Source: Candidatus Hydrogenedentota bacterium (GTDB taxonomy: Bacteria; Hydrogenedentota; Hydrogenedentia; Hydrogenedentales; SLHB01). From it: a stretch of DNA of 64,000 nt. The notes under the pieces were generated by a model. That model worked only from the letters and a program-made list of their open reading frames with translations. It was not told where the DNA came from and made no database searches. Location of the stretch: NCBI GenBank assembly GCA_963745075.1, contig CAVUWV010000017.1:64001-128000 (forward strand). Reading direction: 5' to 3'. Positions within the stretch are counted from its first letter, which is position 1; every line of letters starts with the position of its first letter. Shown one piece after another: positions 10,781 to 38,651 of this stretch. Both the position numbers and the translations under genes were made by a program.

Positions 10781-11440
10781 TCAATCCCCCGCGGTGTTCG
10801 TCAGGGGGTAGGAATGGAGGGGGCCCATACGGCTGAACGGGAGGTAGATGTAATGCACCTTGCCCACAATGCTTTTCATGGGAACGGTGCGTTTCCATCT
10901 CTTCCCATTGACCGTGTCCACGTTCGGCTTGTCGGTTTCGATGGCGTGCCCCGTTTCCGGGTCGATGAGCCAATGACTTGCGTCGTCGCTCTCGTTCCGG
11001 TTGTCGCCCAAGACAAACATCTCTCCGTCGGGAACCTTTCGCGGCGGCATTTGGTAATTCATCGGCTCCCGGATGTAGGGTTCGGATGCGTATAACCCGT
11101 CGATCGCCAGATATCCATTCTCCGCAGAAATCGTGTCGCCGGGCATGCCCACGATTCGTTTGACAAGATAGCCTCCCGGTGTGAGCGGATCCGTCAGCAC
11201 GACGATATCGCCCCGGTGGTATTGCGGTTGCGGCACCGCGAACAGAAAATCGCCCGGCACGAGGGTCGGAATCATCGAGCCGGACGGTACTTCAAATGGG
11301 CGCACGCCCACGTACCCGAATTCGTAAATGAAAACGGCCGCAAAGACGAGGAATACGATATAAAAAATGCGTCTTCCCCGCGATAGACGCGTGCGCTTCG
11401 GGGCCTCGGGGGGCGGATTGGCTGCGTTTTCTGAATTCAC
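10781..11440 (-). CDS. lepB: Signal peptidase I
   Basis: PSGSMIPTL (catalytic Ser), YLVKRIVGMPGD (catalytic Lys) and FVLGDNRNESDD. Confidence 0.95.
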   Translation of the reverse strand: MNSENAANPPPEAPKRTRLSRGRRIFYIVFLVFAAVFIYEFGYVGVRPFEVPSGSMIPTLVPGDFLFAVPQPQYHRGDIVVLTDPLTPGGYLVKRIVGMPGDTISAENGYLAIDGLYASEPYIREPMNYQMPPRKVPDGEMFVLGDNRNESDDASHWLIDPETGHAIETDKPNVDTVNGKRWKRTVPMKSIVGKVHYIYLPFSRMGPLHSYPLTNTAGD

Positions 11441-35289: not shown

Positions 35290-36297
35290 TTATTTGGTTT
35301 CGCGGCCCGCGTATTGCCGTTTGTAGTATTCGAGGAACTCACCGGTCTTGATTTTCCGCCACCACCACTCGTTGTCCTGGTACCACTTCACCGTCAACGC
35401 GATGCCCTCGTCCCAGTTCATAACCGGCTTCCAGCCAAGTGCCTTAAGTTTCGAGGAATCGATCGAATACCGACGGTCGTGGCCGGGCCGGTCTGTGATA
35501 GGTTGAATCAACGACTCGTCCTTGCCGACGCACTCCAGTATTTTCCGGGTTAATACGATGTTTTCCCGTTCGTTTTCCCCCGCGATATTATACACCTCGC
35601 CGGGGGCACCGTGCCGCAACGCGTGGTCCACGCCGCGGCAATGGTCTTCGACGAACAACCAGTCGCGCACGTTCTTGCCGTCGCCATAAAGCGGCAAAGG
35701 TTCGCTATCGATGGCGTTCGTGACAAACAAGGGCAGCACCTTTTCCGGGTATTGATACGGGCCGTAGGTATTCGAACCCCGCGTAATCGTCACGGGAACG
35801 CCAAAGGTGTGGAAATAGGAAAGGCCCAGCAGTTCACCGCCCGCCTTGCTCGCCGAGTACGGATTGCGCGGCCCCACCGGGTCGGTTTCCTTGAACGATC
35901 CTTTTTCGATGCTGCCGTAGACTTCATCCGTCGAGACGAGCAGCACGCGCTTCGTGCCTTGCGCCTTGGCGGCTTCGAGGATGTTGTGGACTCCCCGCAC
36001 GTTGGTCGCGATGAAGTCGGACGCTTCAATGATGCTGCGGTCCACGTGACTGTCCGCCGCGAAATTTACGACCGCATCGCACCCTTCCATGGCTTGGGCC
36101 ATGGTTTCGGCGTCCGCGATGTCCGCCTGCACGAACGTGTGCCGCGACGCATCGAGGTCTCTGAGATTGTCGAGATTGCCGGCGTACGTGAGCTTATCCA
36201 CGTTCACCACATGCACCTCGGGATAGGTCTTCAAGGTGTGGCGCACGAAATTAGATCCGATGAATCCCGCGCCTCCGGTGACGACAATTCGTTTCAT
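35290..36297 (-). CDS. rfbB: dTDP-glucose 4,6-dehydratase
   Basis: TGGAGFIGSN, DKLTYAGN, SHVDRS, STDEVYG, YSASK and DRPGHDRRY. Confidence 0.97.
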   Translation of the reverse strand: MKRIVVTGGAGFIGSNFVRHTLKTYPEVHVVNVDKLTYAGNLDNLRDLDASRHTFVQADIADAETMAQAMEGCDAVVNFAADSHVDRSIIEASDFIATNVRGVHNILEAAKAQGTKRVLLVSTDEVYGSIEKGSFKETDPVGPRNPYSASKAGGELLGLSYFHTFGVPVTITRGSNTYGPYQYPEKVLPLFVTNAIDSEPLPLYGDGKNVRDWLFVEDHCRGVDHALRHGAPGEVYNIAGENERENIVLTRKILECVGKDESLIQPITDRPGHDRRYSIDSSKLKALGWKPVMNWDEGIALTVKWYQDNEWWWRKIKTGEFLEYYKRQYAGRETK

Positions 36298-37142
36298 TCA
36301 CGAGTCTCCCGTTTCTGCATGTAGCGCTGCAGCGCGTCGGTCCAATGCGGCATAGTAAAACCGCAGGCCGCCACGAGTCGCGCATTCGACAATACGGAGT
36401 AGGCCGGTCGCGGCGCTTTCGAGGGATACTCCGTAGCCGCGCACGGCTCCACCGGTGTCGAGACGCCGGCGGTTTTCAAGATTGCCTGCGCAAATTCAAA
36501 ACGTGAACAAGTCCCCTCGTTCACGGCGTGGTACGTTCCGTACGCCGCGGTACGCGCCAGCGCGCGTGTCGCTTCGGCCAGATCCCGCGTGTAGGTCGGC
36601 GAGCCCACTTCGTCACTCACCACGCGGAGCGACGGCCGCTTCGACGCGGCCGCGAGGATTTTCTCCACAAAATTGTTTCCACCGATTCCGTACAACCACG
36701 CGGTCCGCACGATGAAGTGCCGTTCCCACGATCCCCGCGTCGCCGCTTCACCCGCCGCCTTGCTCTCCGCATAAACGCCGTGCGGCGAAATGGGATCGCC
36801 GGCTTCGTACGGTGTCGTCTTTGTGCCGTCGAACACAAAGTCCGTGCTGAAGTACACCACCGGCACTTCCCGCGCGGCTGCCATCTGCGCCACGTTGCGC
36901 GCGCCGCGTTCGTTCACGGCATACGCCGCGTCACGGTCCGACTCGGCGCGTTCCACATCCGTGTACGCAGCCGCATTGATGATGATTTCCGGTCGCGCGC
37001 GCTCGACTGCCGCGCGCAGCGCCGTTGCATCGGTGATATCGAGTTCAGCGTAGGTCAGACCCGTCGTCGGTCCGGCTGTGGCGAATACGTCGATGAGCAC
37101 GTGACCTAACTGACCATCCGCGCCGACTATCAGTGTTTGCAT
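36294..37142 (-). CDS. rfbD: dTDP-4-dehydrorhamnose reductase
   Basis: GADGQLG, NAAAYTDV, STDFVFDG, YAESK, RTAWLY and RPAYS. Confidence 0.96.
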   Translation of the reverse strand: MQTLIVGADGQLGHVLIDVFATAGPTTGLTYAELDITDATALRAAVERARPEIIINAAAYTDVERAESDRDAAYAVNERGARNVAQMAAAREVPVVYFSTDFVFDGTKTTPYEAGDPISPHGVYAESKAAGEAATRGSWERHFIVRTAWLYGIGGNNFVEKILAAASKRPSLRVVSDEVGSPTYTRDLAEATRALARTAAYGTYHAVNEGTCSRFEFAQAILKTAGVSTPVEPCAATEYPSKAPRPAYSVLSNARLVAACGFTMPHWTDALQRYMQKRETRE

Positions 37143-37246
37143 GAGATCCCCTTGAGCGGTCGGGATTGTAGCAAGACGGGGAGTGCAAAAGAAATCTCCC
37201 GCATCGCAGTTTTCGCACCGGCAATCCGGCTATCTTGTGCGGAAGC

Positions 37247-37273
37247 TCAAGTTTTTGAGTGTTTCGCCGATAC
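37247..37273 (+). promoter_or_regulatory. Sigma28 (FliA)-type promoter 1
   Basis: TCAAGTTT...GCCGATAC with TCAA-N15-GCCGATAC spacing. Confidence 0.75.
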
Positions 37274-37279
37274 ATGTAG

Positions 37280-37558
37280 TACAACGCCGAGGCACGGAGG
37301 CCGAGGCAGAATCAGACACGGATGTCGCAAGAGTTGAATGTGGGGTTGGGTAGGCCAATCCTCCCAACCGTCAGCAAAACGGCGTGATGCATGTCCCTGC
37401 ATCCCGTCTTTGCATAGAATGCCCGGTGACCATCCCTACACCGGGTAATCGCAGTGTAGGTGGGTGCTCATCCCTGCACCATACCTGAAAAAGTGACCAT
37501 AGTTTTACCCTCCATGAGTGGCGCCACAATCCCATAGTTGTGGCGTCCTTCCTTTTTT
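37280..37558 (+). ncRNA. Candidate sigma28-dependent structured sRNA, copy 1 (~280 nt; ends approximate)
   Basis: Lies between a sigma28 promoter and an intrinsic terminator with no credible ORF. Has two ACGGA-loop hairpins and five hairpins with C-rich loops, and is homologous to copy 2. Confidence 0.6.
37520..37558 (+). terminator. Intrinsic terminator closing sRNA copy 1
   Basis: Stem GGCGCCACAA/TTGTGGCGTC (G-U wobble only on the + strand), followed by CTTCCTTTTTT. Confidence 0.65.
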
Positions 37559-37600
37559 CTCTTGCCGCGCCAGTCCGAAATCTTTCATCAAATTTGCCGC

Positions 37601-37627
37601 TAAAGTTCCCCGCCCTTCCGCCGATAA
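37601..37627 (+). promoter_or_regulatory. Sigma28 (FliA)-type promoter 2
   Basis: TAAA-N15-GCCGATAA, an exact match to the canonical sigma28 consensus. Confidence 0.85.
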
Positions 37628-37633
37628 AAGTAC

Positions 37634-37825
37634 TGCACGGACCGAGACACGGAGGTCGAGGTCACCTGACACGGATGTCACCCATTTTAATAGGTCTGAG
37701 GACGACGCCGGCGAAAGCCGCACGGGGCGACCAATCCCATCGCCCGCTACGTGACGCGTCCGAAAGGTCTAACCCTCTGTAGAGTGCGCTATGGCACTGC
37801 GTGGCATAGCGCATTTCTCCTTTTT
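37634..37825 (+). ncRNA. Candidate sigma28-dependent structured sRNA, copy 2 (~190 nt; ends approximate)
   Basis: Three ACGGA motifs (two in hairpins), a GAAA-tetraloop hairpin, a CCAATCCCA-loop hairpin and a terminator; homologous to copy 1. Confidence 0.6.
37784..37825 (+). terminator. Intrinsic terminator closing sRNA copy 2
   Basis: Stem TGCGCTATG/CATAGCGCA followed by TTTCTCCTTTTT. Confidence 0.65.
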
Positions 37826-37852
37826 CCCCGCATCATGCCAGTCTTCCTTCGC

Positions 37853-37876
37853 TAATCGTAATCGTAATCGTAATTG
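37853..37876. repeat. Hexanucleotide tandem repeat (TAATCG)x3 plus TAATTG
   Basis: Read directly from the sequence, just beyond the truA stop codon. Confidence 0.85.
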
Positions 37877-37883
37877 GCCCGCC

Positions 37884-38651
37884 TCAATACTCCACCGCCA
37901 TCAAGGTCAGCCCCCGTGCAGGCGCTGTAAAGCCGTGATACGGTCCTGGCGATCCCAACAACGCGTCGATACGCGACTCCGGCAGGTGGCCGCGTGCCAC
38001 CTCCACCAAGGTCCCCGTGATGTTACGGACCATTTTGTAGAGGAACCCGTTCCCGTGGAATTCCAACCGCCACAGGTTTTCCACGTCCGGGGTTTGAATC
38101 ATGCCGCCTTTCGCCAATCGCAGCGAATACAGGGTGCGGACGGTGGAATGCTTCGGGCTGGCATTGCTTCCCTCGAAACTCGCGAAATCATGTTCACCCT
38201 CGAACTTCGTGCACAGATTACCCAACCGCTCGAGATTCAAATCGCGGGGGGCGTGCCACGCAAAGTCCGCACAAAAAGGATCCGGTTCCCGATTCAGATC
38301 GAGCGCGTACCAGTATCGCTTGGCACGGGCGGATTTACGGGCGTGAAATCCCTCCGGCGCCGGCGTAATCGATTCGAAACGAATCTCCGGACCCAGCATT
38401 TGCGACAGGGACCGCCGCAGCCGCTTCGGATCCACGTGATCCGGCAGGGTGAACGAACACACTTGCCCCAAGGCGTGGACTCCGGCATCGGTGCGGCTCG
38501 CGCCGTGGACGGGCACCGGTTCGCCCACAATCCGCTCGACGGCGGCCAGGATCTCGCCCTGCACCGTCCGTTCCGTGGGCTGAACCTGCCATCCGGCAAA
38601 ATTGGAGCCCACGTAGCGCACAACGGCTTTGTAGTTCCGAGTCTCCGGCAT
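37884..38651 (-). CDS. truA: tRNA pseudouridine(38-40) synthase
   Basis: GWQVQ, ASRTDAGVHALGQ, GEHDFASF, GFLYKMVR and TAPARGL. Confidence 0.97.
   Translation of the reverse strand: MPETRNYKAVVRYVGSNFAGWQVQPTERTVQGEILAAVERIVGEPVPVHGASRTDAGVHALGQVCSFTLPDHVDPKRLRRSLSQMLGPEIRFESITPAPEGFHARKSARAKRYWYALDLNREPDPFCADFAWHAPRDLNLERLGNLCTKFEGEHDFASFEGSNASPKHSTVRTLYSLRLAKGGMIQTPDVENLWRLEFHGNGFLYKMVRNITGTLVEVARGHLPESRIDALLGSPGPYHGFTAPARGLTLMAVEY

Follow-up and report, generated by a model that had tools for sequence, protein, structure and literature searches.

The small RNA FlaX of Vibrio cholerae is described as repressing a secondary flagellin by pairing at three sites in the leader of its mRNA and as changing the make-up of the filament; it is cut by RNase E out of the flaA 3' UTR, depends on RpoN and not on FliA, and requires ProQ (PMC11879080; 10.64898/2026.08.28.747715). 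Other sRNAs reported to tune flagella synthesis are driven by the flagellar sigma factor, namely the sigma28-dependent UhpU, MotR, FliX and FlgO (PMC10578931) and CJnc170/FlmR (PMC11187230). In Bacillus subtilis, a CsrA-FliW organism, CsrA is reported to bind the sRNA SR1 and to promote its pairing with the ahrC mRNA (PMC6546359), and the hag leader is reported to carry two GGA stem-loops bound by CsrA (PMC13443453). C. jejuni is portrayed as having no antagonising sRNAs, the flaA leader serving as a decoy (PMC4894983). According to a 2020 review, fliW is anti-correlated with the BarA-UvrY system that stands behind the Csr sRNAs, and joint action of FliW and an sRNA on CsrA was undetermined in any species (PMC7652899). 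Here we describe two short units, found between rfbD and truA of a Candidatus Hydrogenedentota bacterium, that represent a real, phylum-wide and apparently undescribed sRNA family.

Two homologous units between rfbD and truA

The source is Candidatus Hydrogenedentota bacterium (SLHB01; assembly GCA_963745075.1; genome of 6.8 Mb, 89.7% complete), of which contig CAVUWV010000017.1 was analysed over forward-strand positions 64,001-128,000; this whole stretch of 64,000 nt is referred to as the window, and all coordinates are those of the window unless given as G000. Two homologous units lie inside the 741-bp gap (37143-37883) between rfbD and truA, both of which are on the minus strand (Table 1). 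The original prediction had read them as a tandem pair of sigma28-promoted, CsrA-titrating non-coding RNAs, and every element that it listed (promoters, hairpins, ACCCTC and GAGTG) was found in place; it had passed over the outer stem that encloses the first hairpin (37286-37307), as well as the UCCC loops and what the 3' segment signifies. The genes csrA, fliW and fliA, whose presence the prediction had asked to see confirmed, are all present in the genome, where fliW adjoins csrA; a gene for RNase III is present as well.

These elements go beyond chance: across the 6.8 Mb of the genome, there are 10 occurrences of the strict sigma28 promoter pattern and only two, unit 1 and unit 2, of tandem GGA hairpins. 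No further paralogue was found in the source genome by nhmmer with the 3' module. The predicted fold of unit 1 is better than that of all 200 shuffles (z -3.79), while 15 of 200 shuffles fold as well as unit 2 (z -1.52). It had also been held that neither unit contains a credible ORF. Across the family no ORF is conserved, the longest closed one ranging from 0 to 56 codons, but an 80-codon GTG ORF overlapping unit 2 (37540-37782, plus strand) had escaped attention; it is not taken as a gene because its start lies upstream of the unit-2 promoter and because the spacing between the two units varies among relatives, from 354 to about 1150 bases. A run of the hexamer TAATCG lies between unit 2 and the truA stop (37853-37874), and similar runs are found at many sites in the genome.

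Table 1. Features of the rfbD-truA gap and its flanking genes, in window coordinates; the ends of both RNAs are inferred.
Feature	Position	Strand	Basis or remark
rfbD/rmlD	36294..37142	-	TIGR01214 over cut-off; flanking gene, outside the sRNA system
Unit 1, sigma28-type promoter	37247..37273	+	Pattern; fliA present in genome
sRNA unit 1, long multi-loop form, ~280 nt	37280..37559	+	Model R1, 74 bits; z -3.79
Unit 1, hairpin P1, ACGGAG loop, two-tier stem: CsrA-type site 1	37286..37307	+	Column pair 14-52
Unit 1, hairpin P2, ACGGAU loop: CsrA-type site 2	37315..37326	+	Pattern, alignment
Unit 1, UCCC loop	37391..37399	+	9-nt complement within the 562-nt leader of the second flagellin
Unit 1, UCCC loop	37431..37439	+	Complements, over 9 nt, the GGGA loop of the third flagellin's upstream hairpin
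Unit 1, conserved UCCC loop, ~52 nt before seed end	37468..37476	+	Covariation; candidate loop-loop contact
Unit 1, seed, antisense to third flagellin -22..+4 (G000:C8:8376, minus)	37497..37522	+	25/26 complementary
Unit 1, terminator-like hairpin and U tract	37521..37558	+	Start-codon region complemented a second time by the loop, over 10 nt
Unit 2, sigma28-type promoter	37601..37627	+	Pattern match
sRNA unit 2, short form, ~190 nt	37634..37825	+	Model R1, 123.7 bits; itself a training sequence
Unit 2, hairpins P1 and P2, ACGGA loops	37641..37679	+	Pattern, model R1
Unit 2, UCCC loop, tip of long stem	37733..37739	+	Predicted fold
Unit 2, seed	37766..37787	+	Anti-Shine-Dalgarno core kept; anti-start-codon part lost in the source genome
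Unit 2, terminator-like hairpin and U tract	37785..37825	+	Predicted fold, model R1, alignment
truA	37884..38651	-	TIGR00071 over cut-off; flanking gene, outside the sRNA system
Promoter patterns	TCAA-N15-GCCGATA at 37247; TAAA-N15-GCCGATA at 37601	+	Pattern match
Hairpins	37291, 37315 (unit 1); 37646, 37668 (unit 2)	+	Pattern match
ACCCTC; GAGTG	37507 and 37772; 37516 and 37782	+	Pattern match

A family that accompanies flagellin

When 185,579 species genomes were scanned with the pattern, 40 loci emerged, of which 26 bear the title of Ca. Hydrogenedentota or one of its sub-taxa, 7 that of Nitrospiraceae or Nitrospirales and 4 that of other groups, with 3 unlabelled; no viral contig contained the pattern. 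The seven loci with Nitrospiraceae or Nitrospirales titles (L031, L032, L041, L053, L054, L063 and L068) are either mislabelled or a sign that the family is spread more widely. The four others (Desulfobacterales, Desulforhopalus, Muribaculaceae and delta proteobacterium titles) were discarded, the model giving no match at the loci themselves and, elsewhere in these genomes, partial matches only, the best of them, to the terminator part, at E 8.6e-6. A sample of 151 genomes from the phylum of the Desulfobacterales-titled genome, searched with no positive control, yielded none at E 1e-6.

The covariance model and search of relatives that the original prediction had recommended revealed a family conserved throughout the phylum, with compensatory changes. 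Built from 28 copies, whose own sequences match by construction, the model has matches in 108 of the 135 Ca. Hydrogenedentota genomes at E 0.01, of which 100 are at E <=1e-9 and 8 are weak (E above 1e-6). Flagellin was found in 104 of the 135, and strong RNA matches are present in 98 of these 104 flagellin-positive genomes versus 2 of the 31 flagellin-negative ones, kin among the counted genomes being non-independent; the two exceptions are 80% and 60% complete. In family f11, the RNA is found in 2 of 23 genomes, which are precisely the two flagellated ones, and losses of RNA and flagellin coincide in several lineages. All four genomes of genus g29 (G033, G126, G127 and G128) encode csrA, and neither flagellin nor the RNA was detected in any of them; since csrA is kept there without a flagellin match, CsrA may have another job in this genus. 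Genomes that have flagellin and lack a strong match were searched again under loose settings; the five searched (4 flagellin-positive and, as a control, 1 flagellin-negative) gave nothing above 18 bits. The genes next to the RNA vary, and in G109 and G110 the RNAs are located just upstream of the flagellin cluster. Rfam returned no match at gathering over the window and none at E up to 10 over 37100-37900, nor did TwoAYGGAY (RF01731) match the source genome at E up to 10. The suspected novelty is supported within the scope of Rfam and of the main text of openly available papers, in which no description was found.

Removal of four matches under 120 nt and one truncated match from the 149 model matches, which come from 100 loci, left 144 copies. 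These copies support the prediction of stand-alone non-coding RNAs: a sigma28-type promoter lies upstream of 136 of them, compared with 2% of random windows, a same-strand gene follows in only 5 of 86 cases, and compensatory changes are frequent. In the alignment fitted to the model, 18 of 22 base pairs have changed on both sides; in the unfitted alignment A1, 9 of 19 have done so, mostly in the terminator. In P1, both sides of column pair 14-52 have changed in 14 alignment rows. In the consensus structure, P1 and P2 stand side by side with no enclosing stem. Two ANGGA sites are found within the first 75 nt of 120 of the 144 copies and are absent as a pair from the other 24, among which those inspected retain the 3' module. 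Such seed-only paralogues (L157:1058-1193, L143:732-866, L227:713-847 and others) often belong to tandem arrays of three together with full copies. The mid-region contains DTCCC in 110 of 120 copies, versus 20.6 expected, and the UCCC motif lies within a hairpin loop in 116 of 133 cases, versus 82 of 400 genomic controls.

At L263:1454-1590 (G061, from another order-level group), a unit of ~100 nt combines a single clear ACGGAT hairpin with a sigma28-type promoter and a terminator; no clear seed was seen for the one flagellin leader checked, and the unit is perhaps a decoy-only relative.

Contigs from RNA libraries of relatives give a weak hint that the units are expressed. Eleven RNA runs contained under 0.1 of the sequence words, and four were compared in detail, as assembled contigs that carry no strand and in which uncovered stretches have no weight as evidence. 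X2 contains one 183-nt contig entirely within unit 1 (5 differences) and none on the flanks. In X3, one contig of 192 nt falls on unit 2 and another extends 87 bases beyond the unit-1 terminator, and in X4 a 294-nt contig lies across unit 1. The 1868-nt contig of X1, which spans rfbD and beyond, looks like DNA.

The 3' segment is complementary to a flagellin start site

Three neighbouring flagellin genes, labelled first, second and third in this analysis, are encoded on contig C8, which is not the contig of the sRNAs, with starts at 11214, 9413 and 8376, the last two on the minus strand. When the gap was compared with its own genome in a short-word search, 37497-37522 matched C8:8373-8398 as its complement in 25 of 26 bases (E 2.6e-4), which is, the hexamer repeat aside, the sole clear match of the gap outside its own locus. 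The matched segment corresponds to positions -22..+4 of the third flagellin; it spans the Shine-Dalgarno sequence and the start codon, and the seed covers the predicted GGA site that CsrA would bind there. The unit-1 seed was scored against 27,894 candidate start regions, roughly called as ORF starts that have a purine-rich site. The third flagellin takes rank 1 (-48.8 kcal/mol), the second flagellin rank 2 (-35.7 kcal/mol) and the first flagellin rank 3315. Some pairing with many genes is to be expected of any anti-Shine-Dalgarno stretch. On the strength of the pairing and of this ranking on flagellin starts, ACCCTC..GAGTG is read as an anti-Shine-Dalgarno seed. For the unit-2 seed, the third flagellin ranks only 690th of the 27,894 (-26.8 kcal/mol) and no flagellar gene is among the top 15, several of which are doubtful ORFs, nor is any other target convincing; the orthologue of unit 2 in G002 pairs at -35.2 kcal/mol. 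The three UCCC loops of unit 1 and one in its terminator each have a complement of 9-10 nt in the leader of the second or third flagellin, these complements being best matches chosen among three leaders with no chance control.

A sigma28-type promoter of its own precedes the first flagellin, and another lies 560 bases upstream of the second. Before the third none was seen, and this gene is therefore probably transcribed together with the second. Flagellins of one operon are near-identical (254 of about 272 residues).

Several further features of these genes deserve mention. The 562-nt leader of the second flagellin (G000:C8:9413-9975, minus), behind its sigma28-type promoter, contains 15 matches to GGA-type motifs, many of them predicted to lie in hairpin loops, and thus resembles a CsrB-like sponge within an mRNA leader. 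An orphan strong Shine-Dalgarno-like motif, AAAGGAGGTG, is situated ~137 nt upstream of G000:C8:8376 (minus). Of 70 downstream-type leaders, 12 have this motif 125-258 nt ahead of the start, versus 1 of 40 lead-type leaders, and the whole genome has 18 copies. Orphan motifs of this kind recall mRNA-stabilising ribosome sites, and the one found here hints that the flagellin operon mRNA is processed. A fourth, divergent flagellin-domain gene (G000:C21:146348-146761, minus) has neither the strict sigma28 pattern nor GGAGG upstream. Finally, behind another sigma28-type promoter at G000:C23:91722 come a leader in which several GGA motifs are found and a short cysteine-rich ORF; this may be one more late gene under CsrA control.

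Seed and loop vary together with the flagellin leaders

We compared the RNAs with 130 flagellin leaders from 54 genomes, a collection in which the flagellin set of a given genome is incomplete. These leaders show two CsrA-type sites, one in an upstream hairpin and one over the Shine-Dalgarno sequence, and were classed by pattern as stand-alone (A), operon-lead (B) or downstream (C). Even though some leaders are probably misassigned and the test ignores the tree, C leaders of the same genome pair better than those of other genera in 66 of 77 sRNAs and 20 of 24 genera, with a mean advantage of -5.0 kcal/mol (p 4e-5), whereas the corresponding counts are 38 of 78 sRNAs and 12 of 22 genera for B leaders, and 12 of 39 and 4 of 15 for A leaders. 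Since no such effect is seen for A and B leaders, base composition does not explain the advantage of the C class. The variable spacer before the start codon is also paired more in own than in other-genus leaders (0.65 vs 0.55; 17 of 24 genera, p 0.018). Where a genome has three leaders or more (26 genomes), a C leader is the best own target for 55 of 60 RNAs, C leaders making up 57 of the 89 available; 10 of the 60 show no advantage for own over foreign leaders, and two (L252:694 and L228:249) show none over shuffles. The paralogues of genus g45 each favour a different downstream flagellin.

A second contact is indicated by the loops. GGGA is found in the upstream leader site of 66 of 71 C leaders, 25 of 41 B leaders and none of 18 A leaders. 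Of 57 pairs in which both motifs occur and the duplex reaches -28 or lower, 46 have complementary bases next to the UCCC of the RNA and the GGGA of the target, versus 31.1 expected, a value reached in 0 of 10,000 permutations that ignore the tree; after collapsing repeats, the count is 38 of 49 versus 25.5 expected. The second base beside the loop does not covary in these pairs (22 vs 17.6 expected, p 0.12). The UCCC loop is placed 48-57 nt before the seed end in 9 of 10 pairs. The RNAs thus possess a seed over the ribosome-binding site that is conserved and co-varies with its target, as is characteristic of trans-encoded base-pairing sRNAs, as well as the computed multi-site complementarity to a secondary flagellin leader that marks FlaX-type sRNAs.

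Proposed mechanism

We consider it probable that the units encode sigma28-driven, trans-acting antisense sRNAs of the late flagellar tier that repress translation of the downstream flagellins of a multi-flagellin operon and are equipped with an accessory, predicted two-site CsrA-binding domain. Each unit, as its promoter suggests, would be transcribed by sigma28 as a stand-alone RNA alongside the flagellin operon. A UCCC hairpin loop would then contact, in the target leader, the GGGA loop that belongs to the upstream CsrA-type hairpin, and zipping of the 3' seed would engage the second CsrA-type site, the Shine-Dalgarno sequence and the start codon; complementarity and covariation are observed for both contacts, from which we infer pairing in cells. 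Ribosome entry would be blocked, perhaps followed by cleavage of the 26-bp duplex by RNase III. The 5' hairpins likely bind CsrA, and, judging from the motif, the two GGA hairpins may hold one CsrA dimer. Bound in this manner, CsrA could be withdrawn from the lead flagellins, largely left alone by the seed; alternatively, it could stabilise or deliver the RNA in a phylum in which no Hfq was found. The net effect would be a ratio of lead to downstream flagellin in the filament that is set gene by gene. In the source genome, unit 1 would act as the strong repressor, the seed of unit 2 being partly decayed.

Hfq dependence is usual for enterobacterial trans-encoded base-pairing sRNAs, McaS and GadY being Hfq-associated. 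Hfq (PF17209) was found in none of the 135 Ca. Hydrogenedentota genomes, and ProQ (PF04352) was not found in the source genome at its 89.7% completeness. Tentatively, and with more doubt than confidence, one might go further and picture CsrA as a dedicated loading factor for guide-like RNAs in a phylum without Hfq, to be replaced at the leader by an RNA clamp. Flagellin binding to FliW would free CsrA, which would grip the 5' hairpins and bring the RNA to a flagellin leader, where the RNA would take its place and cover both CsrA sites. As each paralogue would address one flagellin, the FliW checkpoint would become a gene-by-gene control of the filament.

Alternative explanations

The same complementarity could be read in the reverse direction, the RNA being a CsrA decoy and the downstream flagellin mRNA pairing with it so as to trigger RNA decay or CsrA release. 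A long duplex and the presence of RNase III are compatible with this, and there are known cases of flagellin leaders that act on CsrA pools (PMC4894983). Nevertheless, pairing that falls exactly on the ribosome-binding site and start codon would silence the mRNA anyway, and copies devoid of GGA sites would have nothing to release, which makes this reading unlikely.

That the RNA only titrates CsrA, its 3' part being incidental or needed for folding, is the notion closest to the original prediction. The two GGA hairpins are indeed its best-conserved part, accounting for 21 of the 23 invariant columns of A1, and are shared as a pair by most copies, their six-base loops closed by AC/GU fit the SELEX description given in PMC7652899, and the seed of unit 2 is weak in the source genome. 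Yet a pure sponge is quite improbable as the main function. The RNA tracks flagellin and not csrA, being absent from the csrA-positive, flagellin-negative genus g29; copies lacking the two sites keep the 3' module wherever inspected; two sites are few beside the 13-22 reported for CsrB/C (PMC6546359); and the covariation of seed and loop with flagellin leaders would be left unexplained. What is supported of the predicted CsrA-titrating sRNA is its stand-alone, non-coding and sigma28-type character, and CsrA binding by its 5' hairpins continues to be likely.

Minimum-energy folds of both units pair bases of the 5' hairpins with the 3' part, as though the seed were folded onto its own GGA hairpins until CsrA binding frees it. 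Such a CsrA-gated intramolecular switch appears rather implausible: in only 35% of 105 homologues does the probability of pairing between the seed core and the 5' 75 nt exceed 0.5, and holding the GGA loops open lifts the unpaired probability of the seed core from 0.49 to no more than 0.55.

A role as activator, in which pairing strips CsrA from the leader, or stabilises the downstream mRNA part, and so raises downstream flagellin output, is very unlikely, given that a duplex over -22..+4, with the Shine-Dalgarno sequence and AUG, would keep the ribosome from loading; this holds even though the RNA masks both CsrA-type sites of its target and FlaX is reported to activate some minor flagellins (10.64898/2026.08.28.747715).

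Finally, a relic, repeat, cis-leader or small-peptide mRNA with no function in trans can hardly be credited in view of the phylum-wide conservation, the compensatory changes, the few copies per genome, the rarity of same-strand genes downstream and the varying length of the longest closed ORF, for all that the 5' half is similar to a flagellin leader, the 3' half to the reverse complement of such a leader, and that transcript support is limited to RNA-library contigs.

Comparison with known systems and significance

If antisense repression is indeed what these RNAs exert, it would offer a route to unequal expression of near-identical flagellins within one operon, and the combination of base pairing and CsrA sites would let cells choose the flagellins of their filament, coupling the CsrA-FliW circuit to gene-by-gene flagellin choice. 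The family brings CsrA-type sites into a conserved RNA of genomes of the CsrA-flagellin type (fliW being shown in the source genome only), and it constitutes a natural set of sRNAs and targets with intermolecular covariation in a phylum in which no Hfq was found.

Among stand-alone non-coding RNAs, CsrB/CsrC and RsmX/Y/Z likewise present GGA in short hairpin loops. The CsrB/CsrC sponges have many sites (22 GGA in CsrB), are under BarA-UvrY control and, as described in the cited parts of PMC7652899, carry no mRNA seed, whereas the present RNA has two conserved GGA sites and a sigma28-type promoter and matches no Rfam entry. TwoAYGGAY (RF01731) also consists of two successive hairpins with AYGGAY-like loops, but these are set on a common basal stem and occur in many copies near REP arrays, going by the cited parts of 10.64898/2026.09.22.753630 and PMC2864571; the present RNA has no common basal stem and few copies per genome.

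Among base-pairing RNAs, McaS and GadY of E. coli resemble the present RNA in having two or more GGA motifs and binding CsrA as well, the latter being likely for the present RNA, and differ in that the cited sections of PMC7652899 do not describe them as pairing with CsrA sites of flagellin mRNAs; their hosts are Gammaproteobacteria without FliW, unlike the source genome. SR1 offers a precedent for CsrA-assisted pairing, which for the present RNA is a hypothesis only, suggested by the CsrA-type sites that both RNAs carry; as described in the cited sections of PMC6546359, SR1 is, in contrast, a peptide-coding metabolic regulator whose target is not a flagellin. UhpU, MotR, FliX and FlgO of E. 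coli are described as UTR-derived and Hfq-linked (PMC10578931), unlike the present RNA, and neither pairing at flagellin start sites nor CsrA sites are named for the sigma28-dependent sRNAs in the cited sections of PMC10578931 and PMC11187230.

FlaX comes closest in logic, since it represses a secondary flagellin through several leader sites that include the ribosome-binding site, a property that is computed for the RNA described here. The latter differs in having its own sigma28-type promoter and a terminator, in lying on another contig than the flagellins, and in a source genome in which no ProQ was found; it carries CsrA-type hairpins and its targets are CsrA-type sites, whereas CsrA goes unmentioned for FlaX in the cited sections of PMC11879080 and 10.64898/2026.08.28.747715. 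This separation from FlaX is one of description, Rfam having given no match. The RNA family is thus a member of none of the families compared here, and would represent a second, independent route to the logic of FlaX.
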